Assembly: GCA_028877265.1 (NCBI GenBank)
Contig: JAPPGX010000191.1
Location: 66,144 to 130,143 of the forward strand
DNA length: 64,000 bases
From: Acidobacteriota bacterium
GTDB lineage: Bacteria; Acidobacteriota; Vicinamibacteria; Marinacidobacterales; Marinacidobacteraceae
Reading direction: 5' to 3'
Shown: one piece after another, positions 29,058 through 55,949 of the stretch
How positions within the stretch are numbered: the stretch's first letter is position 1
Layout: every line of letters begins with the position of its first letter
Translations under genes and position numbers: made by a program
Notes under the pieces: generated by a model
What the model was told of the DNA's origin: nothing
What the model saw: only the letters and a program-made list of their open reading frames with translations
Databases searched by the model: none

Positions 29058-29726
29058 TCAGGGGACCAGACGCAACGGGCGGAAGGCCTCCGGCACGTGG
29101 AAGCTGGGGCTGCCGGTCGGGGACCAGGCGGCGAAGACGGCGCCCGCTTCCGGGGCCTCGGGACCGCCGGGCCGCTTGATGCGGAAGACGTTGAAGCGGA
29201 TTTCGGTGCCGGGGGCGGGAGGACCGGAGAGATCGAGGCCGGCCCAGGGCAGGAACAGGGTTCCGACCCAGCGGTCCTTCGACGTCGCCACGGCCGTCCT
29301 CAAGCCGGTGACCGAGTACCCCCGATCCATCGGTCCGATGGGATCGGAAGCCGTCTCTCCCGGTCCGAGCCTCCTCAGATCGCAGACCACGTTCGCCGGG
29401 TTGAGCTCCACTTCGACGTAACGGCCGTCGCCGAGGGGATCGAGGAAGATCTCGACCACCTCCTCTTCCCAGAGCCGGTCGTCGCGCTCCGTCATGGTGA
29501 ACCACGGTGCGTCGTCCTCCGAGTCGAACCGCAGGTGGAGACCGTGCTCGTTCCAAAGCGCCCGGAACCGGGTCCGGTAGGGCTCGGGCCCCCACACGAC
29601 TTCCCGGGCGCGTTCCCACTCCGGGGCGTCCCCGGCGAGGAGGGAGGCGGCGCCCGCCGACGTATTTCGGGCTTCGTAGAAGGGTTGGGGCTGCCACCCG
29701 AGCATCAGCAGGATCAACGAGACCAT
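29058..29726 (-). CDS. Carbohydrate-binding family 9 (CBM9/DOMON-like) domain protein
   Basis: The protein is 222 aa with a signal anchor. Blocks 'YVEVELNPANVVCDL', 'FNVFRIKRP' and 'WSPTGSPSFHVPEAF' are as in CBM9-like proteins. It is the first gene of the minus-strand operon. Confidence 0.55.
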   Translation of the reverse strand: MVSLILLMLGWQPQPFYEARNTSAGAASLLAGDAPEWERAREVVWGPEPYRTRFRALWNEHGLHLRFDSEDDAPWFTMTERDDRLWEEEVVEIFLDPLGDGRYVEVELNPANVVCDLRRLGPGETASDPIGPMDRGYSVTGLRTAVATSKDRWVGTLFLPWAGLDLSGPPAPGTEIRFNVFRIKRPGGPEAPEAGAVFAAWSPTGSPSFHVPEAFRPLRLVP

Positions 29727-29921
29727 CGGTGCCGGGAATCGTTACTCAGTCTGCGTCTCGGTGACCGAAGGCCAGTGTGCAAAGAGTTGGAGTCGCCCGA
29801 TCCAATGGTCCGAATCCTCGGTCGGAACCACCGGCAGGAGTGGGTTCCAGTGGATCATCATGGAAATGTTTTTCAATGACTTGAGATCGTAACGGAGCCT
29901 TGCTGAAGCTCCGAGAACAGG

Positions 29922-29948
29922 GCATAAAATTTGCATATATGCATAAAA
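29922..29948. promoter_or_regulatory. Candidate operator/promoter core in an AT-rich divergent intergenic island: a 12-bp perfect palindrome flanked by direct repeats
   Basis: The site reads GCATAAAAtttGCATATATGCATAAAA. The palindrome TGCATATATGCA lies at 29932-29943, and the direct repeat GCATAAAA lies at 29922-29929 and 29941-29948. It sits between divergent starts at 29726 (-) and 30197 (+). Confidence 0.4.
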
Positions 29949-30196
29949 GTCACGAGATTCGCGTGGCCTGAACGGGAGTTCCAGAAGTTCCCGGAACGCC
30001 GCGTGGCGGGCGGTGTTCCATGGGGTGTTGACGGGCTTCGGATTTCGCTATCCGTCTACCTGGCTTCAGGAACGGAACCCGTCCCCCGGAATAAAACCGC
30101 TCGTTAGGGAAGACGCCCTTGTTCGGCGTCCCGAGTCCGGGAAAGCCTTGTCAGTTTCCAGCAGTTCTTCTGTTTCTCGAAGGGAGGAGGCGAACG

Positions 30197-33067
30197 ATGC
30201 GTTTCAGGAATAGACCAGTTCCAGCAGCTGTGGCGGCGGTGTCAGTCGTCGTCCTTCTCTTTCTTTCTGCGGCGCCGGAAGCGGGGGCGCAGGGAGCCGC
30301 GGCGCTCATGACCGGCACCGTGCAGGATGAGACCGGGGCGGTGCTGCCCGGGGCCACGGTGACCGCGACGAACCAGGAGAGCGGTGTACAGCGGGTAACC
30401 GTCACGGATGAGTTCGGGCGCTACCGGCTCCCCGCGCTGATTCCGGGCGTCTACCAGATCACCGGGCAGATCTCCGGTTTCGAGACGCTCACGATGACCG
30501 ACATCACGCTGCAGATCGGCCAGGAGGCGAGCCTCGACTTCACCCTCGGGGTCCGCTCGATCGAGGAGTCGGTCACCGTTACCGGAGCGTCGCCGTTGAT
30601 CGAGACCACGAAGTCGGAGATCGCTCAAGCGGTCACCGATCTCCAGATCCAGACCCTCCCGGTGAACACCCGCGAGTGGATCAACCTTGCGATGCTCGCC
30701 GCCGGCGTGAGCCAGGACAACATCCGGGGCTACTACAACAACGCCAACATCGGCGGCGGCTCGCGCTGGTACTCCAACGCCTTCGTGGTGGACGGGGTGC
30801 GGAACACCTGGGCGGAACAGGGAGAGCCGCGCCAGAACTTTCCGATGGATTCGATTGCGGAGTTCAGGGTCACCCAGTCGCTCTACAAGGCCGAGGAGGG
30901 ACTGGCCAGCGGCGGACTGCTCACCGCCGTGACGAAGTCGGGCACGAACACGCTGACCGGCAGCACCTTCCTCTACCTGCGCGACAAGGCGCTGAACGCG
31001 CTCGGCGAATTCGAGGACGAAAAGCCCGCCTTCAAGCGCTACCAGTTCGGAGGCAGCCTGGGCGGTCCCATCGTCGAGGACCGGACCCATTTCTTCTTCT
31101 CGTACGAGCGCACCGAGCTGGATCACTTCTTCACCGTGAACACCGGTGGCGCGCTGCCGGCGGAAGAGGGCACCTTCCCACGCGACGACTACCGGCAGAT
31201 GTACGTCCTTCGCTTCGACCACCTCTTCAACCCCTACCACTCCATGATGGTCCGCTATGCGCAGGAGGACGAGCGGCAGGAGGACATCGGGGCAGGCGGC
31301 ACCCGTCTGAAAGGCTCCGGCTTTACCCAGCACATCCCCCGCCGCGCCGTGGTCGGCACCTACTCGTGGATTCCGAACAACGATGCGCTGAACGAGTTCC
31401 GGGTCCAGTGGGCGTTCGCCGCCTACCAGATCTGGCCGGGCAGTTCCGCCGAGAACTTCACCGAGAACGGCATCTGGAGCGAGGCGCGCTTCAACGCGCT
31501 CGACCAGGTCATCATCCGGCCCAGCTCGCGTCGGGGCTTTTCCTGGGCCGACGTTGGGCCCGAGGTGCGTCTCCAGTTCCGCGACGACTTCTCCTACTTC
31601 GTGACGGGCCGGGGAGGCGAACACGCCATCAAGATGGGCGTGGACTACTCCTGGGTGGACTTCAGCGACGACTGGTCGGGGAACCCCCGCGGCACCTTCC
31701 GTTTCCCGACCGACGCGCCCTATGACCCCGGCAACCCGGAGACCCATCCCACCCTCTTCACCGCGTCCGGTCCCTTCGCTCTCCTCCGCGCGTTCCAGTA
31801 CGGCGGCTTTCCGGCCGAGTGGAACACCAACGTCAAGTCCGCCTACTACTCCGCGTACATCCAGGATGACTGGAAGCCCAATGACCGGATGACGCTGAAC
31901 CTCGGCCTCCGCTACGACCTCCAGACCGGCGTCTTCAACAAGGATCTGGACCGCTCCATCTCTCCTTTCATCGAGCCGGACGCGAGGGGCGACAACAACA
32001 ACTTCGGTCCCCGCTTCGGCTTCGCCTACGACCTTACGGGGGACGGCCGGTCGGTGATGCGCGGGGGCTACGGGCTCTACTACGACAACATCCGCACGTT
32101 GCCGCAGTTCGGTGAACGACGGAACTTCCAGTACATCAACCTGCAGATCCGGAACCCGGGGTATCCCGATCCGTTCGGCGGCCGGGACTTCCTCGAGTTC
32201 GCCTCCACCGCGGCCCCCGGGATCACCATTACCGACAACGGCTACGTGAACCCGTATTCCCACCAGGCGAACGTCAGCTTCACCCGGCAGATCAGTTCCG
32301 ACCTGGCCATGTCGGTGGACTTCAACTACACAAAGGGAAATGCGTACCGCTCGGTGCGGGACATCAACATCTTCCCCGGGCCGGGCCTCGCGCGCCCCAA
32401 CCCGGAGTACGCGCGCATCACGGAAGTCGGGAACCTCGGTGGGACGGAGTACAAGGCGATGTTCGTCCGCCTCGACAAGCGGTTCGCCGACAACTGGCAG
32501 TTGATGGCCTCCTACACCCTCTCGAAGTCGGACGACTATCCCGACGGTTTCCCCCAGGATCACACCAATGTGGATAACGACTGGGGGCCGGACAGCACCG
32601 ACCGGCGTCACCGGGCGGTGATCAGCGGCATCTGGATGCTTCCCTACGGCATCGAGTTGAGCGGTATTGCCGACATCCGGTCCGCTCGCCCGGTGAACAT
32701 CACCGCGGGCACCGACCTGAACGGAGATGCGATCAGCGGTGACCGGCCGCCGGGGGTGACCCGAAACCAGGGCTGCCGCGATCTCGATTTCGGCGCCGTC
32801 AACGCCTACCGGCAGTCGATCGGCCTCTCCGCGGTGAACGAAGGCGCCTTCGAATGCCCGAACTATTTCAACGTGGACTTTCGGCTGAGCAAGCGCTTCA
32901 ACATCGGGGGACCCCGGGATCTGGAACTCTTCGTCCAGGCGTTCAACCTGTTCAACCGTGCGCATTTCGCGATCCCGGTCGGTAACGTGCGTTCCGGCGC
33001 CTTCGGAACGTCGGTCAGCGCCGGGTTCCCGCGCCAGGTCGAGCTGGCGGCAAGGATCCATTTCTGA
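30197..33067 (+). CDS. Oar-like TonB-dependent receptor (CarboxypepD_reg domain plus a large beta-barrel)
   Basis: GGAGGAGG lies 7 nt upstream of the ATG at 30197. A signal peptide is present. 'GTVQDETGAVLPGATVTATNQESGVQRVTVTDEFGRYRLPALIPGVYQI' marks the N-terminal domain, and 'TPLIETT' type plug motifs follow. The C-terminal strand is 'RQVELAARIHF'. Confidence 0.85.
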   Translation: MRFRNRPVPAAVAAVSVVVLLFLSAAPEAGAQGAAALMTGTVQDETGAVLPGATVTATNQESGVQRVTVTDEFGRYRLPALIPGVYQITGQISGFETLTMTDITLQIGQEASLDFTLGVRSIEESVTVTGASPLIETTKSEIAQAVTDLQIQTLPVNTREWINLAMLAAGVSQDNIRGYYNNANIGGGSRWYSNAFVVDGVRNTWAEQGEPRQNFPMDSIAEFRVTQSLYKAEEGLASGGLLTAVTKSGTNTLTGSTFLYLRDKALNALGEFEDEKPAFKRYQFGGSLGGPIVEDRTHFFFSYERTELDHFFTVNTGGALPAEEGTFPRDDYRQMYVLRFDHLFNPYHSMMVRYAQEDERQEDIGAGGTRLKGSGFTQHIPRRAVVGTYSWIPNNDALNEFRVQWAFAAYQIWPGSSAENFTENGIWSEARFNALDQVIIRPSSRRGFSWADVGPEVRLQFRDDFSYFVTGRGGEHAIKMGVDYSWVDFSDDWSGNPRGTFRFPTDAPYDPGNPETHPTLFTASGPFALLRAFQYGGFPAEWNTNVKSAYYSAYIQDDWKPNDRMTLNLGLRYDLQTGVFNKDLDRSISPFIEPDARGDNNNFGPRFGFAYDLTGDGRSVMRGGYGLYYDNIRTLPQFGERRNFQYINLQIRNPGYPDPFGGRDFLEFASTAAPGITITDNGYVNPYSHQANVSFTRQISSDLAMSVDFNYTKGNAYRSVRDINIFPGPGLARPNPEYARITEVGNLGGTEYKAMFVRLDKRFADNWQLMASYTLSKSDDYPDGFPQDHTNVDNDWGPDSTDRRHRAVISGIWMLPYGIELSGIADIRSARPVNITAGTDLNGDAISGDRPPGVTRNQGCRDLDFGAVNAYRQSIGLSAVNEGAFECPNYFNVDFRLSKRFNIGGPRDLELFVQAFNLFNRAHFAIPVGNVRSGAFGTSVSAGFPRQVELAARIHF

Positions 33068-33206
33068 CGTTCTCGTCGATGCGGAGCGCTGGAGCCTGCC
33101 AGCCAGCGCTCCGCTCAAGCGCCCCCGACCCATCGGGGCGCGTATGATGGAGATTCGGCCGGCCGCGAACCTTGCGGATCGGCCTTCAGGCAAGGGAGAC
33201 GGACGG

Positions 33207-34916
33207 ATGAACAGAAAACGACTTTTTCTGACCATGGCGAGTGCGGGGTTGGGACTCGCGCTGCTGCTCGGACCGGTGCTCCATGAGCCCGCCGAAGGCG
33301 GCGGGATGAGCGTCAACGGGATGGTGGTGACTTCTCATCCGCTCGCCGCCCAGGCCGGGCTCCGGATGCTCCAGGCCGGCGGGAACGCCTTTGACGCGGC
33401 GGTGGCGAGCGCGGCCGTGAAGGCGGTCGTGGAACCCCTCATGTCCGGCCTCGGTGGCGTGGGCGGCTACGCGCTGATCCATGACGCCGAAAAGGGGGAG
33501 ATCCGGTCGGTGGACTTCATCGGTGCCGCGCCCGCAGCGGCCGAACCCGAGGCCTTCACTGCGGGCAGCCGTCTCTGGGACCGGACCCATCCCGCCCGCG
33601 ACAGCTTCCTGGCGCCGCTCGTTCCCGGAAATCTCGCTGGCTGGGCGGCGCTGCTCGAGGAATACGGCTCCATGTCCTGGGCGGAGGTCCTGGCTCCGGC
33701 GATCGAGTACGCCGAGGGTGGCTTCGCGGTGTCCCCGGCGGTTCACGGTCCATTCGGAAGCAGCGGTTTCGGCGCCGATGTCGCCCGCTATCCCTACGGC
33801 GCCAGCATCTTCTTCAAGGACGGGAAGCCTTGGCCCGTGGGCGAGGTCTTGAAGCAACCCGATCTGGCCAAGACCTTCAAGGCCATCGCCGCCGACGGGC
33901 CGGGGGCCTTTTATGGCGGGCCGATCGCGGAATCCGTCGTGAACTTCTTCCAGCAGAACGGGGGCATCCTCACCGTTGAGGACTTCGCGAACTACCGGGC
34001 GCGGTGGAGCGAGCCGCTCTCGACCACCTACCGCGGCTACACGGTGTACAGCAACCCCCCCGGCGGCTCGGGGATGACGATCCTGCAGACCCTGAACATC
34101 CTGGAGCAGTTCGACGTGCCGGCGCTCGAGCACAACTCCGAGGAGTTCGTCCATCTGGTTGCGGAAGCGATGAAGCTGGCCTTCGTGGACGAGGACACCT
34201 GGAACACCGGCAAGGACTACGCCGACATTCCGCTCGACCGGCTGCTCTCGAAGGAGTATGCGGAGCAGCAGGCGGCTCGGATCGATCTCTCCCGGGCACA
34301 GTTCCATGCGGCGGTCCGTCCCGAGAGCGACGCTCCCACCGCGGTGGAGCACACCACGCACCACACCGTGGTGGACAAGGACCACAACGTGGTGACGATC
34401 ACCCAGACGCTGATGCTCCCCGCCGGGGTGGTGGTGCCCGAGACCGGGGTCATATTCAACAACGGCATGTCCTACTTCAGCCTCGATCCGGAGAGCGTGA
34501 ACCTGATCGAAGGCGGCCAGCGCCCGCGCTTCGTGATGAGCCCGACGATCGTGACCCGCTACGACAAACCCTATTTCGCGCTCGGGTCGGCGGGCGGCTG
34601 GACGATTCCCCAGACGATCCTGCAGGTGCTGGTGCGGGCCCTCGACTACGACATGGACGCGGCGGCGGCGGTGGATGCGCCGCGTTTCGTTGTCCGCTAC
34701 CTGGCGAACTCGATTCCCTACATGGATGGGACCGACCTCGTGCTGGAGAAGGATTTCTCGGACGAGGTCCGGGAGGCGCTGAACGCCAAGGGGCACCGCC
34801 TCCGTGAGCCTCCCAACCGGATCGGGATGCTGAACGCGATCAGGATCTTCCCTGGCTCGGGAGTACTGTCCGGGGGGCCTGACAAGCGCCGCGAGGGGGC
34901 CGCGGCAGGCTGGTAG
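33207..34916 (+). CDS. ggt: Gamma-glutamyltransferase
   Basis: Blocks are 'SHPLAAQAGLRMLQAGGNAFDAAVA', the autoprocessing/catalytic Thr region 'EHTTHHTVVDKDHNVVTITQT', and 'GSAGGWTIPQT'. I chose the ATG at 33207, which precedes a signal-like N terminus. Confidence 0.85.
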   Translation: MNRKRLFLTMASAGLGLALLLGPVLHEPAEGGGMSVNGMVVTSHPLAAQAGLRMLQAGGNAFDAAVASAAVKAVVEPLMSGLGGVGGYALIHDAEKGEIRSVDFIGAAPAAAEPEAFTAGSRLWDRTHPARDSFLAPLVPGNLAGWAALLEEYGSMSWAEVLAPAIEYAEGGFAVSPAVHGPFGSSGFGADVARYPYGASIFFKDGKPWPVGEVLKQPDLAKTFKAIAADGPGAFYGGPIAESVVNFFQQNGGILTVEDFANYRARWSEPLSTTYRGYTVYSNPPGGSGMTILQTLNILEQFDVPALEHNSEEFVHLVAEAMKLAFVDEDTWNTGKDYADIPLDRLLSKEYAEQQAARIDLSRAQFHAAVRPESDAPTAVEHTTHHTVVDKDHNVVTITQTLMLPAGVVVPETGVIFNNGMSYFSLDPESVNLIEGGQRPRFVMSPTIVTRYDKPYFALGSAGGWTIPQTILQVLVRALDYDMDAAAAVDAPRFVVRYLANSIPYMDGTDLVLEKDFSDEVREALNAKGHRLREPPNRIGMLNAIRIFPGSGVLSGGPDKRREGAAAGW

Positions 34917-35001: not shown

Positions 35002-36531
35002 GTGGGCTTGAGGAATCGCGTTCTCCTGGCGGCGATCCTTCTTGGCGGGGGATTTGTGTTTCCGGCGGCGGGCGGTTGCGCCCTGCGGTCGGGAGGTTCC
35101 CCCGACCTGGCGCAGGAGGCGGCCCCCGAACTGCCCTCCGACTTTGCCGAGAATCCAGCCAGCGGAGCCCGCCAGGCGCAGGAGTGGTGGCGGGCGTTCG
35201 CCGATCCCGCGCTCGACCACGTGGTCGAATCGGTACTGGACTCCAATTTCTCCGTGGCGGAAGCGGTAGCGCGGGTCGAGCAGGCCCGAACGCGGGCCCG
35301 GCTGGCCGACGCGGCGATCCTGCCCACGGTCGGAGCGAGCCTCACCGCGGAAACCTTCGACCTGCCCACGAACGCCGCGATCGGCGCCCAACTCGAGGAC
35401 CTCGGTCTCGATTTCCCGCTGCCCGACCGGCTGGGCTTCCCGACCTATACCCTGGGCGCGGACTTTGCCTACGAAGCGGATTTCTGGGGCCGCGTCCGGC
35501 ACACCGCACTCGCGGCGGGATCCGAACTGCTGGCCTCGGAGTTCGACCTGCGGGTCGCCCGCATCGGCATCCTCGCCGAGACGATCTCGGCCTACTTCGA
35601 AATCGGCCATCTCCGGCAACAACTCGCCATCGCTCGAGGGCACGTGGAACTGCTCGAGGAACGCGAGCGGCTGGTCGAGAGCCGCTACGAACGTGGGCTT
35701 GCCGTCTCGCTCGAACTGCACGGCGTGCGTCAGGCTCTCTCGAGCGCCCGGGCCGGCGTGCCGCAGGTCGAGAATCAACTCGCCGAGACCGAGTCGCGGC
35801 TCGCCGTGCTGCTGGGAGGCTACCGGGAGGATGTCGCGGCGATCCTTCCCGAATCCCTCTCCCCGGAATCTCCAGCCGAACCGGTGCCCGCAGGCATTCC
35901 GGCCGACCTCCTTTCGCAGCGCCCGGACGTGCAGGCCGCGGGTCACCGGCTGGAAGCCGCCGGACACACCGTCGAAGCCCGTCGGGCCGCGTTGATGCCG
36001 CAGCTTTCGCTCTCCGGATCCATTGGACTCCGGAGTACGGACGCCGGAGGCCTCTTCGACGTCAAGCAGTGGTTCACGAACCTCGCCGGCAACCTCCTTC
36101 GTCCGGTGTTCGACGGCGGCCGGCTCGCGAGCGGCGTGGAACTGGCCGAGGCCCGCTTCGACGAGTTGGCGGCGGCCTACGGCCGGACCATCGTTACCGC
36201 GGTCAACGAGGTGGAAGCGGCCCTGGCCACCCTCAGGAACGAAGGCCGGCGGCAGGAATCTCTCGCCGCGCAGCACGAGGAGGCCCGCGCCTCCGTCGAA
36301 GCTCAGTCCAGGCGCTATGAGGCGGGCATCAGCGGCTATGGCGATCTGCTCGATGCGAATGCCAGACTGCTGGATGCGGAATCGGCGCTCGCGGGTTCGG
36401 CGCGGAACCTGGCGCTCGCCCGCCTCGCCATCCACCGGGCTCTGGGGGGCGCCTGGACCGCCCCGGACGAGATGGCCAGCGCGCCGGCGAGCACGCCGGA
36501 TGCCCGCGCCAAAGGACCGGCCGACCGATGA
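35002..36531 (+). CDS. RND efflux outer-membrane factor lipoprotein (NodT family)
   Basis: A lipobox is present in LLGGGFVFPAAGGC. 'WWRAFADPALDHVVESVLDSNFSVAEAVARVEQAR' is the typical NodT N-terminal repeat. The second repeat reads 'LLSQRPDVQAAGHRLEAA'. Confidence 0.85.
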   Translation: MGLRNRVLLAAILLGGGFVFPAAGGCALRSGGSPDLAQEAAPELPSDFAENPASGARQAQEWWRAFADPALDHVVESVLDSNFSVAEAVARVEQARTRARLADAAILPTVGASLTAETFDLPTNAAIGAQLEDLGLDFPLPDRLGFPTYTLGADFAYEADFWGRVRHTALAAGSELLASEFDLRVARIGILAETISAYFEIGHLRQQLAIARGHVELLEERERLVESRYERGLAVSLELHGVRQALSSARAGVPQVENQLAETESRLAVLLGGYREDVAAILPESLSPESPAEPVPAGIPADLLSQRPDVQAAGHRLEAAGHTVEARRAALMPQLSLSGSIGLRSTDAGGLFDVKQWFTNLAGNLLRPVFDGGRLASGVELAEARFDELAAAYGRTIVTAVNEVEAALATLRNEGRRQESLAAQHEEARASVEAQSRRYEAGISGYGDLLDANARLLDAESALAGSARNLALARLAIHRALGGAWTAPDEMASAPASTPDARAKGPADR

Positions 36532-37745
36532 ATCGAACGAAGGGATTCATCCTGGCGGCGATCATCCTGCTGGGATCGTTCGGGATCGCAACCCTGCTGA
36601 TCGCGCAGCGGCCGGAGCCCGAGCGGCGCGAACCTCCCTCCCGGATTCCGTTCGTCGTCACGGCGCCCGCGGTCGCGGGTTCGGGGCCGATCCCGGTCCA
36701 CGGCGCCGGGACGGTCCGGCCCCGCGTCCAGGTGGAGGTGGCCGCCGGGGTGAGTGGACGGGTCGTCCGGGTTGATCCGGGCTTCGAGAGCGGCGGCCGG
36801 GTCAGCGAGGGTCAGGCGCTCTTCCGCCTCGACGACGCCGACTACCGCTTCCGGGTGGAGCAGGCCCGTTCCGGCGTCGCCGTACAGCAGGTGGAACTGC
36901 TGAAGGTCGAGGAGGAAGCGCGGATCGCCCGCGAGCAGTACGAAGCGTTCCAGAGCCGCCGTGGCGCCGCCGGGGACGCGGAAGCGAGTCCCCTGGCGCA
37001 CTGGGAGCCGCAGCTCGAGGCGGCGCGGGCCGGTGTGGAACGGGCCCGCGCGCTCCTCGCGGAAGCCGAACTCCTGCTCGCGCGAACCGAAGTTCGGGCG
37101 CCCTTCGACGCCGTGGTGCGCTCCGAGAGCGTCGGGGTCGGACAGTTCGTGACCGCAGGGGTCGGCGTCGGCCGGATTTACGCCTCCGATGCGGTCGAGA
37201 TCGTCGTCCCGCTGTCCGACGCCGATGCGGCGCTCGTCCCGGGTCTGTGGGACCTGAGGCCGGGAGTCGCGGATCGTCGGGCGGCGGCCCGGGTCACCGC
37301 GGACTACGGGACCGGCGCCTATGCCTGGGACGGGTACGTGGACCGGGTCGAGGCCGCACTGGATGAAACGACGCGCACCCTCGATGTGATCGTGCGCGTT
37401 CCGAACCCCTTCACGGGTGGTTCCCGGGTGCAAGCGGGAGAAGCGAGCGCGGACGCCGGATCCGCGCCGCCGCTCCTGATCGGCCAGTTCGCGAACGTCG
37501 AGATATCGGGGATCGCGCCGGAGGAGTACTTCCGGATCCGGCGGCTGGGGCTCCGGCCGGGCAACGAGGTCTGGGCGGTGGACGGCGAGGCGGTGACCAT
37601 CGTTCCGGTCCGCGTGCTGCAGCGCTTCGACGACACCGTCTACGTCACCGGCGGGCTGCAGGAAGGCCAGGAGGTAGTCCTGAGTGGCATTCAGTTCGCG
37701 ACCGAGGGACTGAGGGTGCGGACCGCCGCGAACCCGGACCCTTGA
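36528..37745 (+). CDS. RND efflux periplasmic adaptor (membrane fusion protein)
   Basis: The start overlaps the OMF stop as ATGA. An N-terminal TM anchor is followed by 'VSEGQALFRLDDADYR', a coiled-coil hairpin, 'TEVRAPFDAVV', and a beta-barrel/MPD ending 'VVLSGIQ'. Confidence 0.8.
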   Translation: MNRTKGFILAAIILLGSFGIATLLIAQRPEPERREPPSRIPFVVTAPAVAGSGPIPVHGAGTVRPRVQVEVAAGVSGRVVRVDPGFESGGRVSEGQALFRLDDADYRFRVEQARSGVAVQQVELLKVEEEARIAREQYEAFQSRRGAAGDAEASPLAHWEPQLEAARAGVERARALLAEAELLLARTEVRAPFDAVVRSESVGVGQFVTAGVGVGRIYASDAVEIVVPLSDADAALVPGLWDLRPGVADRRAAARVTADYGTGAYAWDGYVDRVEAALDETTRTLDVIVRVPNPFTGGSRVQAGEASADAGSAPPLLIGQFANVEISGIAPEEYFRIRRLGLRPGNEVWAVDGEAVTIVPVRVLQRFDDTVYVTGGLQEGQEVVLSGIQFATEGLRVRTAANPDP

Positions 37746-37854
37746 ACCTGCGGGACGTTGTAAGGCCCGGAGCGCAGGTCGATCGCCCGCAGTCGGATCC
37801 GCCGGGGTGGGGCGGAGGAGGAAGGACCTTGGGCGAGAATGCCGGTCAGGACGC

Positions 37855-38850
37855 ATGAGTGAAGACGTGCTCTCCCCGTTCCCGGAGGGTTGGTATTTCG
37901 TTACCACCCGGGGATCACTGGAGAAGGCGAGGCTCATCCAGAAGACCTGGATGGGAAAGGACATCGTCGTCTGGTGCGACGACGCCGGCGGAATCTCCGT
38001 GGCCGAGTCGGTCTGTCCTCACCTGGGGTCCGAACTGGGCCCCGCCGCCGGCGGCCGAGTGCGGGATGGCCGTCTCGTGTGTCCTTTTCACGGCTACGAG
38101 TTCGACGTCAGCGGGCAATGCGTCGCCACGCCCTTCGCCCCGCCGCCGAAGACCGCGAGGCTGAGGTCGTTCGAGACTCGGGAGGTCCTGGGCATCGTCT
38201 TCGCCTGGTGGGGAATCGACGGACGGCCCCCGCAGTGGAGCCTTCCCGAGGACCCGCCGGCCGGCGCCGACTGGTGCGAACCGGCGTTCCGGACTCTCCG
38301 GTTTCGGGGGCACCCCCAGGAAACGAGCGAGAACGCCGTGGACATGGCGCACCTCCGGTACGTGCACGGCTACGGCAACGTCGGCCGGGTCGGCAAGGTA
38401 ACGGTGGACGGCGCGTATCTGCGGAGCTGCTTTGATTTCAAGCGCACCCAGCGCATCGCCGGAGCCATCAATCTCACCTTCGACGTCTCCGCCACCGCGC
38501 ATGTCGTCGGACTCGGATACTCGCTCGTGGAGTTCCACGAGCGCTCCATTGGAATGGACGGACGCCTCTGGGTCCTTGCGACGCCCGTCGACGGCACGCT
38601 CATCGACCTGGTGCTGGTCGGACAGTTGCGAAGAATCCGGAAACCGAAGCGGCTGATCGTCGGGTTGCGGTTCCTGCCGCCTGCTCTCCGTACCGGGACC
38701 ATGAACAAGCTGATGCTGTTCTTCCAAAGGCACGACGTCATGCAGGACGTGGAGATCTGGAGCCGGAAGCGGTACCGGTCGCGCCCGAGCCTCAGCCGGG
38801 CCGACGGCGAGATCGGGTTGTACCGGCGCTACTGCAGGCAGTTCTACTAG
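37855..38850 (+). CDS. Rieske [2Fe-2S] non-heme-iron oxygenase (KshA / Neverland-like architecture)
   Basis: The Rieske motif is 'CPHLGSELG...(x19)...CPFHGYEF'. The mononuclear iron motif E-x3-D-x2-H-x4-H lies in 'ENAVDMAHLRYVHG'. The N terminus 'GWYFV' is typical for this class. I chose the ATG at 37855. Confidence 0.8.
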   Translation: MSEDVLSPFPEGWYFVTTRGSLEKARLIQKTWMGKDIVVWCDDAGGISVAESVCPHLGSELGPAAGGRVRDGRLVCPFHGYEFDVSGQCVATPFAPPPKTARLRSFETREVLGIVFAWWGIDGRPPQWSLPEDPPAGADWCEPAFRTLRFRGHPQETSENAVDMAHLRYVHGYGNVGRVGKVTVDGAYLRSCFDFKRTQRIAGAINLTFDVSATAHVVGLGYSLVEFHERSIGMDGRLWVLATPVDGTLIDLVLVGQLRRIRKPKRLIVGLRFLPPALRTGTMNKLMLFFQRHDVMQDVEIWSRKRYRSRPSLSRADGEIGLYRRYCRQFY

Positions 38851-38872: not shown

Positions 38873-40252
38873 TCAGGCGCTCCGGAACCGCCAGCCGTAC
38901 ATCACCCGGCCGTAGAAGTTGAACCACTTTCTGGCCTCCGGGTCCTCGAACGGATAGTCCGCGCCGAGCTGTCTCGCCGTGACGAGGCCGGACACGAAAC
39001 AGGTCTCCTGGCTGTTGACCAGGGTGTGCGCGCCACAGTGCCAACTCCGCCGCTTTCCCTGGACGAAGCGAAACAACTGGGTCAGGAAGGCGACGTGAGG
39101 CACGTCGTGCACGATGTGCTGAAACCACCACCTCTTGACGATCCTGCTCTCGTCGATACGGCTGATCGGGTTGTAGGTCACGAGACACGGCTTGTCCGAC
39201 GTGTTCGCCCAGGGCTGCTGGTTGTGCATGATGTAGGTGATCTCGTAGTTGTCGGGCCGCGCGCCGTACTGCTCGATGTGGTTGCTCCGGGTGGCGAGCG
39301 GCCTGGCCTCGTTGTCGGGGAGGACCGAGGCGTCCGAATGCACGACCGTGTGGTTGTGCAGTTCGCTTTCGTACCGGATCGAGGAGAGGAGCCAACCCTC
39401 CAGCCGCGTCGGCCTGTCGAGGAGCATCAGCGTCTGGTTCGCGTTGCACGCGAAGACGACTTCGTCGAAGGTTTCGGTCCTTCCGTCCTCGTCCTCCACG
39501 ACAACCTCGTTACGGCGCCGGTGGACCCTTCGCACCGGCCGGTTCAGATAGATCTTCTCGCGAAAGGCTGCGGACAGATCCCGGTAGATCCGCCGGGTGC
39601 CCTGATCCCAGGTCTGCATCGGCGTCGCGGTCTCGATGTCGAAGAAGTCCAGGTACCGCGAAAAGAGCGACGCCGGCATGTCGAACACGTTCGTCGCCAT
39701 CAGGAAGTTGACGAACATGGGCTTCAGGACCTTGTACCGGAAGTCCCCCGAGTACCTTCCCAGGTTCAGCAGCGCTCCCATGCTGACGTAGTTGAACGGG
39801 TTAAGGGAGCTGAGCAGCTTCGACCTCGAGACGTTGAGCCGGCCGAACCACTTCAGACGTCTCAGGAGACGCTGGAACTTCTGGATTTCCGGTTGCAGTT
39901 GCCTCCTGATGTCGGAGTCGAAGTCGTGGGCATAGATTCCGCCTCGATACTTCACGCTGTAGTTGAACCGCGTTTCGAGCAGCTCGATGCCGTGCTGTTG
40001 CATGAGCAGGACGAAGTGGTGGTATGCCGACGGTATGCACGCGGTGACCGAGATATCGAACGGCACCGTGCTGCCGTCGTCCTGCGGCATGTCCGCAGTG
40101 ATCGCATTGCCGCCGAGCTGCGCCTGCGCTTCGAAGAGCCGAAAATCGAAACGGTCCCGGTGGCGGTTGAGCGCCCACGCCGTCCCGAGCCCCGAGGCGC
40201 CCCCACCGACAATGGCAACCCTTCTCGGCGCGCCGCCCTTCGCTTCACCCAC
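38873..40252 (-). CDS. Rossmann-fold NAD(P)/FAD-dependent oxidoreductase (amine-oxidase/COG2907-like)
   Basis: The N-terminal dinucleotide motif is 'RVAIVGGGASGLGTAWAL...LFEAQAQLGGN'. The protein is 459 aa. The C-terminal 'WHCGAHTLVNSQETCFVSG' resembles the COG2907 tail. Confidence 0.7.
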   Translation of the reverse strand: MGEAKGGAPRRVAIVGGGASGLGTAWALNRHRDRFDFRLFEAQAQLGGNAITADMPQDDGSTVPFDISVTACIPSAYHHFVLLMQQHGIELLETRFNYSVKYRGGIYAHDFDSDIRRQLQPEIQKFQRLLRRLKWFGRLNVSRSKLLSSLNPFNYVSMGALLNLGRYSGDFRYKVLKPMFVNFLMATNVFDMPASLFSRYLDFFDIETATPMQTWDQGTRRIYRDLSAAFREKIYLNRPVRRVHRRRNEVVVEDEDGRTETFDEVVFACNANQTLMLLDRPTRLEGWLLSSIRYESELHNHTVVHSDASVLPDNEARPLATRSNHIEQYGARPDNYEITYIMHNQQPWANTSDKPCLVTYNPISRIDESRIVKRWWFQHIVHDVPHVAFLTQLFRFVQGKRRSWHCGAHTLVNSQETCFVSGLVTARQLGADYPFEDPEARKWFNFYGRVMYGWRFRSA

Positions 40253-40431
40253 ATTCCTACTCTACCTTTGGGGTGCGGCCGCCCCGTCCGCTCGCCGCCG
40301 CCGCAGTAGGCGGTCCGGGGACCCTGCCGACCCCTTGCCCGCCCGCTCCATCGACTAGACTCTGACCCGGACCATCCAGTGGCGGCGGATCGGTGGGGCT
40401 GTCGAGCCGCCTCGGCTGGAGGTTGAGCACC

Positions 40432-42450
40432 ATGAGCGAGGGCACCCGGTTTCCGATCCGAATCGCCGAGGAGTTGATCCTCCTCATGCTGGACGAGCAG
40501 AGCGGCTACCTCGAGATGGTTCCGAACTGGGACTTCTCCTGTGTCATGGCCGGGGCCGTGCTCGCCGACCTGGCCCTGGAGCGTCGCATCGAGACCGACC
40601 TGGAGCGGTTGTACCTGGTCGATCCCTCACCGACCGGAGATGAGTTGCTCGACCCGACGCTCAAGGACATCGCCGAATCCGACGAAAAATCGGACGCCCA
40701 GTTCTGGATCGAACGGAACACCCGCCAAGCCGACGAAATCGTCGCAGCCGCCCTCGAGCGCCTGGTGGAGCGGAACATCCTTACCCACGAGAGCGGCGGA
40801 TTCTGGGGGCTCTCGCGCTCTGTCGCCCGTTCAGGGACTTTTCCGACCCAGGCTGTCGCGACCCGCCGGGAATCCAAGGTGAGGGTCCTGAGCGTCATCC
40901 TGAACGACGAGATCCCGGACCCGCGGGACGCCATCCTGGTCGCGCTGATGCACACCTGCGGCGGCTTCAAGCTGCTGCTGGAGGAAGAGGACTACGAAGA
41001 GCGGCTCGCCCGCATCGAACTCGTCGCCAAGCTGGACCTCATCGGACGGACGGTCGCCGCCGCCGTGAAGGACAGCACGGCGAGGCCCAAGACCCGTCGC
41101 GTCGTTCAGACGAAGCCCATTCCCAAGCCTGGGTATCTCGTACTGCTACAGCGCGACTTCCTCTCCGGCAACATCTCGAAGGCGATGTACGGCATGTATC
41201 GAAAACACGGGCCGGTCGTCAGGATGCCCTTCAAGATCCGCGGCAAGCCCGTCGTTTCGTTGATGGGTGCCGATGTCAATCACTGGGTCAATCGGCACGG
41301 ACGGTTCTATCTCCGCTCGAAGGACTACATCGAAGGGCTGGAGCACGCGTTTGGCGCATCCCGGAGTCTCCCCGGAATGGATGGCGCCGAACACTATCGA
41401 ATGCGCAGGGAACTCCAGACTGCGTATTCCCGCGCCACGCTCGCGCAGCGGCTGCCGGAGCTGATCGACGACTGCCGGAAATCGCTGAGCCGTTGGAAGG
41501 AAGGGGATGTCTTCCGCGCCACCGAGAGCTTTCAGAACCACATCAGCAGTCAGATCTCCAATTTCGCGATGGGAGTGGATTGCAGCCACTATGTCGACGA
41601 ACTGTTGGCCTTTGAACACCGTGCACTGATAACGCGGGTCCAGGGCGCATTGCCGGATTTCATGCTGTCCACCCCAAGAATGAAACGGTATGGGAAGCGT
41701 GTCAGGGAACTCCAGGAGGCGATCACCGCGGGACACACGACGGCGCTGCGCAAGGGAAAGCCCCGGGATCTGGCCGACGCGATTCTCGATCTCCACAAGA
41801 GGGACCCGCAGTTCCTTCCCGAAACGGACCTCACCTTTCCCTTCGTGGCTTCCATGGTTGCGAGCATCTATCTCGGCAGCGGACTGGCCTTCACTGTTTA
41901 CAACATGGTTCGAAACCCGGACGTGTACGCGAGGGTCCGGAGCGAGGCCGAGTCGCTGTTCGGCAACGGTCGTGAACTTGCGGGAGATGACTTCAATCAC
42001 CAGAGCATCGACGTCACGGTGCGTCTCTGCATGGAATCCTCGCGTATGTACCCGGTGATTCCATGGCAGTTGAGAACGGTCATGAACGAGTGCATCGTCA
42101 GTGGTTACGAGATACCGCCGAAGACGATGTTGCTGATTTGCCAGACTGCGCCGCACTATGCCGAGGATCTGTACCGGGATCCGTTGAAGTTCGATATCGA
42201 TCGGTACTTGCCGGACCGGGCCGAGCATCTGCAACCGGGCGCCTATGCGCCCTACGGCCTGGGTACGCACATGTGCCTCGGCCACCGGTGGGTGGAACTT
42301 CAGATGGCCGTCAACGTCCTGCTCATCGCGCATCACCTGCAGCTCGAAGTGGTGCCCGGCAACTACAAGATGGGAATCAATCCGTTCCCGACCTTGGCCC
42401 CCAACAGGAAGCTGAAGTTCCGCGTCGCCGGGGTCCCGCGTCCCGTGTGA
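40432..42450 (+). CDS. Fusion protein: an N-terminal GPP34/GOLPH3-like domain joined to a C-terminal cytochrome P450
   Basis: GGAGG lies 10 nt upstream of the ATG at 40432. GPP34 blocks are 'IAEELILLMLDEQSGYL', 'VMAGAVLADLALERRI' and 'PDPRDAILVALMHTCG'. P450 blocks are the ExxR 'ESSR' followed by 'MYP' and the heme-Cys loop 'YAPYGLGTHMCLGHRW'. Confidence 0.8.
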   Translation: MSEGTRFPIRIAEELILLMLDEQSGYLEMVPNWDFSCVMAGAVLADLALERRIETDLERLYLVDPSPTGDELLDPTLKDIAESDEKSDAQFWIERNTRQADEIVAAALERLVERNILTHESGGFWGLSRSVARSGTFPTQAVATRRESKVRVLSVILNDEIPDPRDAILVALMHTCGGFKLLLEEEDYEERLARIELVAKLDLIGRTVAAAVKDSTARPKTRRVVQTKPIPKPGYLVLLQRDFLSGNISKAMYGMYRKHGPVVRMPFKIRGKPVVSLMGADVNHWVNRHGRFYLRSKDYIEGLEHAFGASRSLPGMDGAEHYRMRRELQTAYSRATLAQRLPELIDDCRKSLSRWKEGDVFRATESFQNHISSQISNFAMGVDCSHYVDELLAFEHRALITRVQGALPDFMLSTPRMKRYGKRVRELQEAITAGHTTALRKGKPRDLADAILDLHKRDPQFLPETDLTFPFVASMVASIYLGSGLAFTVYNMVRNPDVYARVRSEAESLFGNGRELAGDDFNHQSIDVTVRLCMESSRMYPVIPWQLRTVMNECIVSGYEIPPKTMLLICQTAPHYAEDLYRDPLKFDIDRYLPDRAEHLQPGAYAPYGLGTHMCLGHRWVELQMAVNVLLIAHHLQLEVVPGNYKMGINPFPTLAPNRKLKFRVAGVPRPV

Positions 42451-51222: not shown

Positions 51223-52011
51223 TTAACCGGGCTCTTCGACGAGGGACAACGTCAGCTCCGCGAACGGCTCCTCCCGCACACTCGCGGGCAGTTCCTGAAT
51301 GAGGCCGATCGGTTCATGGGGTGTGACATCGGCGTTCCGGGCGGTGAACGTCGCCCCGCTGTCGGTCCCCGAGTCGTAGCCGATCAGCTCCACCCCGATT
51401 CGTTCCATCCAGCATCCACCGGCTTCCATCAGGGGCATCCCGCTCACCCCGACGAACCAGTCGGGGCTGGGTGCGATCATCGAGACCAGAGTCATCAGCG
51501 GGTGTTCTGCCGTCGCCTCGAAGATCAGCCCGACCGATCCCGGCGACGGGAAGGAGGCCTCCGAGCCTCTCACGCAGGTGGTGCTCCCACCGCGATCCGC
51601 CTCCGCGTCGATTTCCCGGCAGAGCGAGGACACGCTGCCGGTCTCAGCCATGTTCTCGATGCCCGGAGTGGCAATGCCGCCGGAACTCCAGAACGAAACC
51701 TCCGGCGCGTGGGCTGCCCCGGCCACGCGGGAAAAGTGCGCTCCCGACGGGAAGGGCGGCTGGTTGCCGTGCGAGGACGCATTCCAGACGGCCCGGAACG
51801 TCACCGCGTAGGTCGCTGAATCCGGGCACTCGGGTTCGGGTTCCGGCATCGGCGTCGGAGCCGGCGAAGGCGGAGCCGGGGGCGCAGGCGCCGGGGGAGG
51901 CGTCGGCGCCGGCGTGGAAGGTGCATCGGACCCGCACGCCAGCGCGAACAGAGCGAGGACGAGACAGGCGAACGCGCCAAGGCGGGAAGTGCGCGTGACT
52001 GACGGGAGCAT
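51223..52011 (-). CDS. Spondin_N domain lipoprotein with a Pro/Ala-rich linker
   Basis: The ATG at 52011 gives MLPSVTRTSRLGAFACLVLALFALACG, which contains a lipobox. A linker PSTPAPTPPPAPAPPAPPSPAPTPMPEPEPE follows. Spondin_N blocks are 'YAVTFRAVWNASSH', 'AHFSRVAGAAH' and 'SMIAPSPDWFVGVSG'. Confidence 0.7.
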   Translation of the reverse strand: MLPSVTRTSRLGAFACLVLALFALACGSDAPSTPAPTPPPAPAPPAPPSPAPTPMPEPEPECPDSATYAVTFRAVWNASSHGNQPPFPSGAHFSRVAGAAHAPEVSFWSSGGIATPGIENMAETGSVSSLCREIDAEADRGGSTTCVRGSEASFPSPGSVGLIFEATAEHPLMTLVSMIAPSPDWFVGVSGMPLMEAGGCWMERIGVELIGYDSGTDSGATFTARNADVTPHEPIGLIQELPASVREEPFAELTLSLVEEPG

Positions 52012-52071
52012 CCCCCGCCACGGTAGCGCAGCGCCCGACGGATTCACCGAGCAGCCCCGTCCGCGCGCCGG

Positions 52072-55559: not shown

Positions 55560-55949
55560 GGGAGCGACCTCCGTCCGGATCACGACGCGAAGAACATGTC
55601 CGGACCCGCAGATCCGGGCGTAACGGGATGTCACGTCCTTGCAATTTCGTTGCCACGAGCGCCGGCCTGGAGCGCCGGACTCTGGCCGGCATCGCGGCGA
55701 CAGGCCGCGAAACGCACCCCGCCACGGACCCGTGTGACGCGAGCCTCGGAGCGCCAGCCTCCGGCTGGCATCGCCGACCGCAGGGAGGCGAAACAAGCGC
55801 CGCCACCGATCCAGGTGGCGTGAGCCCGACCGCACGCGGCGCACCGCCGCCCGAGAGAAGCCGAGCGGCGCCCATCAGGCTGAACGCAGCGCCGCGAGCA
55901 CTGGTTTCGCGCTCCCGCGCGATGCCGGCCGGAGGCCGGCGCTCCGAGC

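Follow-up and report, generated by a model that had tools for sequence, protein, structure and literature searches.

The locus considered here raises the question of whether a pronounced local drop in GC content marks foreign DNA. It lies in a 64,000-nucleotide stretch of an Acidobacteriota bacterium of the family Marinacidobacteraceae (contig JAPPGX010000191.1 of assembly GCA_028877265.1, positions 66,144 to 130,143; hereafter, the window), in which positions 38873-42450 form a low-GC patch with two divergent genes, one for an FAD flavoprotein and the other for a fusion of a GPP34 domain with a cytochrome P450, located between the genes of a tripartite efflux pump. A preliminary description, made from the sequence alone, interpreted the patch as a pair of genes acquired horizontally into a pre-existing pump operon. 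Our analysis leads to another answer: the patch is probably the middle of a conserved, internally reshuffled seven-gene cluster of enzymes and efflux components and not a recently inserted pair, and this cluster would serve the tailoring and export of a sterol-like lipid. The seven genes, together with those of their parts which are discussed separately, are as follows.

35002-36531, plus strand: outer-membrane factor (OMF) of a tripartite pump, first gene of the cluster; Pfam OEP 151 bits, GC 0.70
36528-37745, plus strand: periplasmic adaptor (MFP); TIGR01730 RND_mfp 152 bits, cutoff 94.9
37807-38850, plus strand: Rieske non-haem-iron oxygenase of the KshA type; Pfam Rieske 58.5 bits and KshA_C 87 bits
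38873-40252, minus strand: flavoprotein of the FAD amine-oxidase fold, left half of the patch; Pfam Amino_oxidase and NAD_binding_8
40253-40431, no strand: divergent intergenic region between the flavoprotein and fusion genes; 179 bp, GC 0.72
40393-42450 as an open reading frame, 40432-42450 from the true start, plus strand: GPP34-P450 fusion of 672 aa, recognized with Pfam
40432-41139, plus strand: N-terminal part of the fusion, a GOLPH3-like GPP34 domain; Pfam PF05719 117 bits, cutoff 29.1
41140-42450, plus strand: catalytic part of the fusion, a P450 domain, where the GC of the patch is lowest; Pfam p450 124 bits
42518-45721, plus strand: AcrB-type RND permease, assigned to 'type A' below; Pfam ACR_tran 512 bits
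45759-46814, minus strand: sterol-type C-methyltransferase (SMT); Sterol_MT_C 59 bits (cutoff 21.7), Methyltransf_11 62.5 bits, CMAS

Origin of the low GC content

The patch itself is real. Its GC content is 0.623 as compared with 0.686 for the rest of the window, it is the minimum of all 3578-bp sliding windows (mean 0.683, standard deviation 0.022), and a 1-kb sliding profile runs at 0.60-0.64 across 38.5-42.5 kb against the window average of 0.683. The preliminary description had pointed out this dip correctly, and the 13 hand counts of 60-nucleotide lines on which it relied were in error by only 0-4 percentage points. The second-lowest 3578-bp window (29651-33228, GC 0.633) falls on the gene of a TonB-dependent receptor (TBDR; 30119-33067), which has a GC content of 0.633-0.643, yet a normal GC content at the third codon position (GC3) of 0.87.

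Genes were called by frame-specific GC, and the deficit of each gene was split by codon position relative to the window background (GC1/2/3 of 0.697/0.495/0.869). Positions 1 and 2 carry 101% of the deficit in the flavoprotein gene (0.58/0.42/0.872), 87% in the GPP34 half of the fusion gene (0.672/0.41/0.852) and 65% in its P450 half (0.601/0.417/0.774). The share of the residues F, Y, M, I, N and K is 0.239 in the flavoprotein and 0.217 in the fusion, as compared with 0.161 ± 0.034 in the products of other genes, and both proteins are low in G, A, R and P. The OMF and MFP are opposite in composition (share of the same six residues about 0.11, GC 0.70-0.71), and the proximity of these GC-rich genes sharpens the contrast at the edge of the patch.

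The same deviation accompanies both families in other hosts. A scan of species-representative genomes for the fusion yielded 303 loci, of which 79 were retained (loci are designated by L numbers below), almost all of them from metagenome-assembled genomes (MAGs) of sponge or coral symbionts. The GC content of the 79 loci varies from 0.47 to 0.72. The flavoprotein gene lies below the local GC content in 25 loci out of 25 (mean difference -0.050), and the fusion gene in 96% of the 79 loci (mean -0.037). In the same set, the OMF and MFP genes exceed the local GC by 0.041 and 0.033 on average and are never below it. Across loci, GC3 is correlated with host GC with r of 0.86-0.95. Thus, the third position follows the host, and the low GC at the first two positions in every host results from residues with AT-rich codons in strongly conserved proteins. 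As for the flavoprotein, more than 120 protein clusters, the names of which include Acidobacteriota, Bacteroidetes, Gamma- and Alphaproteobacteria, are at least 80% identical to it; its composition is effectively fixed.

The GC dip mostly represents, therefore, the amino acid make-up of two very conserved enzymes and not a recent insertion. Bulk GC does not serve as evidence of foreign DNA here, as had been thought, because GC3 of the flavoprotein gene equals the background and the dip recurs in all hosts. A lesson of method may be drawn from this case: where genomic GC is 68%, a dip of 6 points can arise almost wholly from the residues of two highly constrained proteins, and a codon-position split combined with the comparison of orthologues across hosts tells such a composition effect from foreign DNA.

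Conservation in close relatives and evidence for insertion

According to the preliminary description, a pre-existing OMF-MFP-(Rieske)-RND operon acquired the flavoprotein/P450 pair horizontally; as a rival explanation, this would imply a lower-GC donor and a fairly recent event that separated pump genes previously contiguous. Besides the minimal GC content of the patch, the codon bias of the fusion gene, which is the highest in the window (z 5.8), and the low GC3 of its P450 half are in line with this proposal, as is the occurrence of contiguous OMF, MFP and RND genes beside the P450 gene in other loci (L054, L056, L060, L064-L067). However, the normal GC3 of the flavoprotein gene, the deficit of which falls wholly on positions 1 and 2, and the intrinsic character of the dip in both families contradict it, and so does synteny. 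As determined by tblastn, every close relative, i.e., L001-L008, L053 and L080/L081, has the gene order of the window, OMF(+) MFP(+) Rieske(+) flavoprotein(-) P450(+) RND(+) SMT(-), the last locus being a contig from a sponge-MAG set, 98-100% identical to the window. None of these relatives has an empty site. The apparent loss of the flavoprotein gene in L010 is in fact a truncation, with the 3' remnant of the gene kept. At the nucleotide level the patch is 89-97% identical to the relatives, which is equal to or above the identity of its flanks, and there is no break at 38873 or 42450; in the tree of flavoproteins, the window copy falls inside the Vicinamibacteria clade. Presence/absence changes among the relatives occur outside the cluster, at the TBDR and GGT genes.

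Mobility genes, tRNA genes and repeats, the absence of which also counts against insertion, were searched for in the window. Neither transposase nor integrase domains are present in about 37 best-supported gene calls, all of which were scanned, and a search for flanking repeats yielded only chance-level matches (63-90% over 16-43 nt in GC-rich DNA), none of them at the edges of the patch or of the cluster; these results bear out what had been seen by eye. No tRNA genes were found in the window either. In comparison with a classical genomic island, the locus displays a similar local compositional deviation and genes common to several phyla, but it differs in the absence of an integrase, a tRNA gene, repeats and presence/absence polymorphism, as well as in the deviation lying mainly in residue-determined positions and in GC3 being ameliorated outside the P450 half. 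Considering all this, along with the discordant gene histories described below, we regard a recent insertion of the pair into a resident pump operon as extremely improbable.

The presence of SecA and IMPDH genes indicates that the window is chromosomal. Outside the cluster, the window encodes eukaryote-like domain proteins, namely Sortilin-Vps10/BNR (9573-12791) and Spondin_N (51223-52047), such proteins being found also in L004 (20787-22058). Eukaryote-like domain proteins are typical of the genomes of sponge symbionts and thus give independent support to the symbiont origin of the window.

Several side observations concern variation among the close relatives. The nearest relative shifts along the locus, being L003 for the TBDR-GGT region, L004 from the OMF to the flavoprotein gene and L001 for P450-RND. 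Unlike the patch, the TBDR gene is truly polymorphic for presence: the window shares it with L001, L003, L006 and L080/81, whereas L002, L004, L005, L007, L008, L011 and L053 lack it. The GGT gene (32958-34916 in the window) stands upstream of the OMF gene or, in L005 and L053, downstream of the SMT gene. Within the cluster, the MFP gene and the MFP-Rieske spacer (36500-38000) are the most divergent part, with a nucleotide identity of 74-83% in L001, L003, L005 and L053 and of 97-98% in L004, a pattern which indicates allelic mosaicism via within-population recombination.

Distribution of the cluster across phyla

Relatives 51-98% identical were revealed in at least five phyla of symbionts and in unrelated chromosomal settings. 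Within Acidobacteriota, loci of Vicinamibacteria are the closest (84-98%), and Bryobacterales, Terriglobia and Ca. Marinacidobacterium are represented too. The other loci belong to Rhodothermales, Latescibacterota, Acidimicrobiia (Ca. Poriferisodalis) and, among Gammaproteobacteria, to Pseudomonadales, Thiotrichales and Ca. Porisulfidus. The flanks consist of housekeeping genes, for example pyrB, prs, rplY and pth in Rhodothermales.

In the 56 loci with complete 10-kb flanks counted from the fusion gene, at least three partner families were encountered in 45. The RND and MFP genes were found within 10 kb of the fusion in 47 loci each, the Rieske gene in 39, the OMF and SMT genes in 27 each and the flavoprotein gene in 20. 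The commonest direct neighbour of the fusion is the RND gene (29 of the 56 loci, co-oriented in 19), and the flavoprotein gene, where present, adjoins the fusion in 17 cases out of 20. Clustering of the other open reading frames gave no further family occurring in more than 10 loci, each of those found being restricted to a single lineage. The RND proteins of the cluster are 60-69% identical across phyla; the generic RND proteins of the same loci show 36-40%. Since the partners recur in shuffled orders and in unrelated contexts, the cluster is the recurring element.

In six other Acidobacteriota loci (L026, L031, L034, L051, L062 and L076, at about 6.3-22 kb), cluster genes are nested between the MFP and RND genes of a second pump with the arrangement TetR-OMF-MFP...RND, which is only distantly related to that of the window (29-32%, 30-32% and 36-40% identity for OMF, MFP and RND, respectively). 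The nested genes are those of the P450, the cluster RND, the MFP and the Rieske protein, sometimes with the SMT, and a related second pump is contiguous in L030 (3-6144). Nesting of the kind imagined in the preliminary description, which these loci could be taken to favour, thus exists; the lineages are different, however, and the cassette is larger. Integration of the cluster might be aided by the homology of pump genes to one another.

Internal mosaicism

Neighbour-joining trees built on tblastn segments, together with pairwise identities, point to different histories of the cluster parts. In the RND tree, a tight clade (type A) comprises the copies of the window's clade and those of Bryobacterales/Terriglobia at 86-90% identity, always adjoining an SMT gene, and a broad clade (type B) takes in all remaining copies. 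The window MFP groups with the copies of Vicinamibacterales and Marinacidobacterium, and is only 50-53% identical to the MFPs that stand beside the type-A RND genes of Bryobacterales. The SMT is 77-78% identical to the Bryobacterales copies adjoining type-A RND genes. Outside the clade, the nearest OMF copies are those of L049, L054 and L029 (60-64%), and the nearest P450 domains belong to Rhodothermales/Bryobacterales (75-76%), other Vicinamibacterales reaching 66-70%.

Two loci, L083 and L009, are reciprocal mosaics. Their identities to the window (%) are as follows.

L083: OMF 76, MFP 80, Rieske 79, flavoprotein 87, GPP34 90, P450 domain 79, RND 66 (type B, inverted), SMT absent
L009: OMF 60, MFP 60, Rieske 68, flavoprotein 82, GPP34 82, P450 domain 86, RND 87, SMT 82

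L009 shares P450-RND-SMT with the window as a block (at 84/87/82%), and L083 shares the left part. L049 (Ca. Marinacidobacterium) has OMF(+) MFP(+) Rieske(+) flavoprotein(-) P450(+), followed by an inverted type-B RND gene. These data disagree with both structural elements of the proposed insertion. The flavoprotein and P450 genes are not one acquired unit, since L083 and L049 retain OMF-MFP-Rieske-flavoprotein(-)-P450 with a different RND gene and P450, RND and SMT co-vary in L009; nor are OMF, MFP and RND a resident operon, since the window RND is close to the Bryobacterales copies, the MFPs of which are so distant. The polarity that follows from the tree and mosaic patterns is opposite to that suggested previously.

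The boundary between the parts can be traced within the fusion gene. L011 and L082 each possess two fusion paralogs flanking the flavoprotein gene (10001-12034 and 13636-15654 in L011; 9388-11418 and 12991-15039 in L082), with GPP34 domains 89-93% and P450 domains 64-66% identical. In the second copy of L011, the identity to the window drops at approximately residue 236, which corresponds to position ~41140 of the window. Within the clade the GPP34 domain is 83-93% identical, even between paralogs of one genome. These observations suggest gene conversion of the N-terminal domain or a domain swap at the linker.

On the basis of sequence comparison we infer that the stable backbone extends from the OMF gene to the GPP34 domain and that the exchanged part comprises the P450 catalytic domain, RND and SMT. 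The cluster would then be an old, horizontally shared module, reshuffled internally in symbionts that live in sponges and, in at least one case, in a coral, with the backbone OMF-MFP-Rieske-flavoprotein(-)-GPP34 in this lineage and an exchangeable right part consisting of the P450 domain, the type-A RND and the SMT, the exchange junction being presumably located at the interdomain linker of the fusion, at ~41140. Of the horizontal history claimed for the patch, the general idea holds, given the relatives in at least five phyla and in unrelated contexts; the unit said to have moved, the resident operon and the timing do not. Mosaicism of this kind, including a junction at a domain linker, shows the evolution of a module without classical mobile-element machinery.

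Residual GC3 anomaly of the P450 half

Amino acid composition as the complete cause of the dip is ruled out by a clade-specific depression of GC3 in the P450 half. The value of 0.774 corresponds to the 0.4th percentile of 428-codon segments taken from other genes; the difference from the other cluster genes is -0.064 in the window's clade (12 loci) and -0.011 in 55 other loci. Synonymous sites are thus atypical in the P450 half, and codon usage is deviant in the fusion gene as a whole; GC3 of the flavoprotein gene (0.872) is not atypical, and the GPP34 half stands at 0.852. The sole other gene of the window with a segment as low in GC3 as the P450 half is that of a VWA-domain protein (54387-55844), its whole-gene GC3 of 0.778 being the window minimum, with a codon-bias z of 3.4.

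The confinement of the GC3 depression to the P450 half is consistent with a junction at ~41140, and the low GC3 could be a sign of incomplete amelioration after domain replacement. A sharper version of this part of our explanation states that the P450 domain, alone or together with the type-A RND and the SMT, was recombined from a lower-GC symbiont similar to Bryobacterales, Terriglobia or Rhodothermales before the clade diversified. Such a replacement would agree with the GC3 step from ~0.85 to ~0.77 at the linker, which is seen in all 12 clade members and only in them, with the P450 being nearest to Rhodothermales/Bryobacterales while the OMF and MFP are nearest to Vicinamibacterales, and with the affinities of the RND and SMT to Bryobacterales and the reciprocal mosaics described above. 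However, GC3 of the RND (0.837) and SMT (0.847) genes is barely depressed, though both resemble the putative donors more closely than the P450 domain does; a second P450 domain type (Y), present in L011/L082, is equally low in GC3; and simple amelioration would hardly leave a deficit of 0.09 in place throughout a clade whose members diverge by up to ~20% in nucleotide sequence. We therefore consider this donor scenario a serious possibility, somewhat short of an even chance. With both P450 domain types of the clade being low in GC3, selection or a local mutational effect fits the anomaly as well as incomplete amelioration does.

The GPP34 domain and binding of phosphatidylinositol 4-phosphate

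The GPP34-P450 architecture recurs in more than 120 homologue clusters at an identity of at least 69%, and the domain profile matches human GOLPH3 (3kn1, E 1.3e-9, residues 60-275). In the literature, the long form of GPP34 proteins with a P450 domain (GPP34_L) was reported to be exclusive to sponge symbionts and expressed in Aplysina, and a function of a secreted effector binding phosphatidylinositol 4-phosphate (PI4P) was proposed for GPP34 proteins (PMC11706023). The fusion considered here resembles GPP34_L in its two domains, its length of 672 aa, its occurrence in sponge-symbiont MAGs of many phyla, such as those of Ca. Porisulfidus, Ca. Poriferisodalis and the ROBB21 set, and its patchy, multi-copy spread. 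It is unlike GPP34_L, as described, in its position within a conserved cluster of enzymes and a pump and in the absence of the arginines of the PI4P pocket.

That pocket is formed in GOLPH3 by W81, R90, R171 and R174, the mutation of which abolishes binding (PMC2806290). In a profile-to-sequence alignment, with the profile derived from at least six phyla, these residues align to V, A, D or E, and V of the GPP34 domain, respectively, and K and R are missing from all three basic positions in each of the 85 homologues. The missing arginines weaken the interpretation of the long form as an effector, according to which it would bind host PI4P and block phagosome maturation, its gene neighbours being functionally unrelated (PMC11706023). 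In support of that interpretation, the GPP34 domain is a genuine GOLPH3/Vps74 homologue and the long form has the reported host restriction and expression. On the other hand, no signal-peptide-like N-terminus was seen (by inspection only), GPP34 is fused to a haem enzyme requiring cytoplasmic redox partners, and tight linkage of the gene to those of a pump and lipid-modifying enzymes recurs in at least five phyla. The cited study contains no analysis of the neighbours of the long form or of the pocket residues and does not mention sterols, a pump or a methyltransferase, a Rieske domain appearing there only as another fusion partner of GPP34 (PMC11706023). Taken together, these data make the effector function improbable for the fusion. 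In the cluster explanation that we prefer, the GPP34 domain would target the P450 to lipids or membranes and would not be a PI4P-binding effector; the recurrent linkage to SMT, Rieske protein, flavoprotein and pump, together with the absence of the PI4P pocket, makes this a testable alternative to the effector hypothesis for a gene that belongs to the small number reported to be exclusive to sponge symbionts.

Two loci touch on that exclusivity. The isolate label of L010 (JAAXGQ010000013.1), Plut_88867, apparently denotes a MAG from the coral Porites lutea, in which case the fusion would also occur outside sponges. L028 (CAZHTD010000039.1), labelled as 'uncultured Bifidobacteriaceae', carries a fusion gene 72% identical to that of the window, the label being probably due to mis-binning.

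Inferred function of the cluster

Three enzymes of the cluster have affinities of the steroid type. The closest solved structures of the Rieske protein are KshA 3-ketosteroid 9-alpha-hydroxylases (E 2e-24, over residues 25-187 only), and its cluster-ligand and iron motifs are readable (CPH...CPFH, DMAHLRYVH). The best solved relatives of the P450 domain are the cholesterol 24-hydroxylase CYP46A1 (E 1e-20) and then CYP51s (68 bits). In the SMT, the motifs GWGESLHF, VDVGCGIGGP and YAIESTCHA are readable, which we take to be hallmarks of Erg6 and plant SMTs. These affinities suggest that the substrate is probably a sterol-like lipid. The flavoprotein has LkcE as its best solved relative (E 6e-27, full length), followed by a putative aminooxidase of P. 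acnes (2b9w), which is presumably a fatty-acid double-bond isomerase. The set of OMF, MFP and AcrB-family permease necessary for a tripartite pump of the HAE1 type is complete, although not contiguous in the window.

In the mechanism that we propose, cytoplasmic or inner-membrane enzymes would tailor a sterol-like lipid, with the SMT performing C-methylation of the side chain, the Rieske enzyme and the P450 oxygenation, and the flavoprotein desaturation or isomerisation, and the tripartite pump would export the product across the envelope. A more specific version, in which the GPP34-P450 is the core enzyme of a sterol-tailoring-and-export module of sponge symbionts and the pump delivers modified sterols to the host milieu, is put forward tentatively, and we hold it to be less probable than not. 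If it is true, bacteria are a direct source of unusual 'sponge' sterols, e.g., side-chain-alkylated or oxygenated ones. Symbiont SMTs of sponges are known to alkylate sterol side chains in vitro, and such bacterial alkylation matters for 24-isopropylcholestane in its role as a sponge biomarker (PMC10070321); a symbiont module both tailoring and exporting sterols would be relevant to this debate.

Alternatively, the enzymes might modify toxic hydrophobic compounds of the host or its diet (sponge terpenoids, sterols, alkaloids) which the pump expels. The pump is indeed AcrB/HAE1-like, i.e., of the classical multidrug type, the NCBIfam matches of the P450 are terpenoid oxygenases, the flavoprotein is amine-oxidase-like, core biosynthetic genes are absent from the window, and a TetR regulator with a second pump is associated with the cluster in some lineages. 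A methyltransferase with a Sterol_MT_C domain would be odd for detoxification, however, and conservation across phyla (at least 80% for the flavoprotein) suggests one specific substrate and not broad xenobiotics. We judge detoxification rather unlikely, though more plausible than the effector function.

The explanation by a conserved cluster for sterol-like tailoring and export, which we retain as probable, has a number of points to reckon with. As for the chemistry, the Pfam-annotated genes of the window include neither a sterol-synthesis gene nor a redox partner for the P450 and the Rieske enzyme; LkcE is not a sterol enzyme; and the first SMT motif (residues ~60-75) reads FMVMGWGESLHF (MVMGWG), the counterparts in yeast Erg6 and in plants being YEYGWG and YEWGWG, respectively. 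With Met and Val in place of the aromatic residues, the substrate might be positioned differently or a different number of methyl groups might be added. An AlphaFold2 model of the fusion, based on a 12-sequence alignment, was unusable (mean predicted local distance difference test score 34, predicted template modelling score 0.23). As for the history, co-occurrence was counted from the P450 outward, and a search of metagenome contigs from the pump side, with the MFP, matched nothing but close relatives, at 76-83%, and MFPs of a generic kind, at 31-35%, and was uninformative. The trees had neither bootstrap nor a species tree, with the direction and timing of transfers not being established. 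Finally, the GC3 anomaly of the P450 half, confined to the window's clade and equally strong in both of its P450 domain types, shows that residue composition is not the whole explanation of the dip.

Comparison with known systems

The cluster is a variant of the known sterol gene clusters of sponge symbionts, and no description of this variant turned up in the searchable literature; nor did that literature contain any link of the GPP34-P450 fusion with sterols, an SMT or an RND pump. Clusters for sterol synthesis are widespread in sponge symbionts and horizontally transferred (PMC9531527). Like the cluster described here, they (ERG24-CYP51-LSS with or without SMT, PMC9531527; SMTs, PMC10070321) occur in many phyla, spread horizontally, are under strong purifying selection and include an SMT with a Sterol_MT_C domain. 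In contrast to them, oxidosqualene cyclase, ERG24 and CYP51 are absent from the Pfam annotations of the 64-kb window, where a tripartite pump is encoded together with a KshA-like Rieske protein, a flavoprotein of the amine-oxidase fold and a GPP34 fusion whose P450 is not a CYP51. Thus, the cluster looks like a tailoring-and-export module rather than a core synthesis cluster. Nothing on Acidobacteria, or on P450, Rieske or efflux genes in the neighbourhood of the SMTs tested, was found in the supplements of the study on SMTs (PMC10070321).

Sterol transporters BstABC adjoin sdmA/sdmB in Methylococcus (PMC10942540). In BstABC and the hopanoid transporter HpnN, as in our case, a transporter of the RND superfamily stands beside sterol-modifying genes, including that of a Rieske oxygenase, and a polycyclic lipid would be outward-bound in both. 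BstA, however, resembles MMPL/HpnN proteins and has BstB and BstC as its partners (PMC10942540), and the RND of the window is AcrB-type and accompanied by an MFP and an OMF. Identification of the latter with BstA or HpnN was rejected, the HpnN models giving ~28 bits at cutoffs of 752 and 1100.

In the synthesis of furan fatty acids, UfaM, a SAM methylase of the CMAS type, acts on a lipid double bond, after which UfaD, an FAD-binding enzyme similar to phytoene desaturases, desaturates the methylated product (PMC7380195). UfaM/UfaD act on a phospholipid acyl chain, and the system is only an analogy to the pair of SMT and flavoprotein, for which a similar logic of methylation followed by FAD-dependent desaturation is possible.

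Individual genes and their transcription

The OMF scores 284.6 bits with NCBIfam TIGR01845 outer_NodT (cutoff 210), and the RND is below the NCBIfam subfamily cutoffs (396 vs 1250). For the Rieske gene, the true start is probably ATG 37855, giving 331 aa, since independent gene calls agree on this length. The Rieske protein was not accepted as SdmA, because the match to the NCBIfam equivalog NF052579 is limited to the Rieske domain and reaches 37 bits where 600 are required. A KshB-like or ferredoxin-reductase gene was found neither in the cluster nor in the rest of the window, and none is recurrent in the 79 loci. For the flavoprotein, HpnE and protoporphyrinogen oxidase were likewise rejected, the matches being limited to the dinucleotide-binding N-terminus. 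The open reading frame of the fusion opens, as called, at GTG 40393; ATG 40432 is favoured by the lengths of homologues, by independent gene calls and by GGAGG at 40418-40422.

The flavoprotein gene is the only one on the minus strand from OMF to RND, so the strand switch noted earlier is confirmed; the SMT gene just past RND is on the minus strand too. The intergenic region 40253-40431 presumably holds divergent promoters, although a promoter scan, which covered this region, revealed no sigma-70-like site or consensus. Terminator-like sites were found at none of the gene boundaries, that between P450 and RND included, and their frequency is no higher than in shuffled sequence. The OMF and MFP genes overlap by 4 nt, RND starts 67 bp past the fusion gene on the same strand, and the SMT gene, the last of the cluster, is convergent with RND at a distance of 37 bp. 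From the spacings along the cluster (-4, 109, 22, 179, 67 and 37 nt), four transcription units are deduced: OMF-MFP-Rieske, flavoprotein, P450-RND and SMT.

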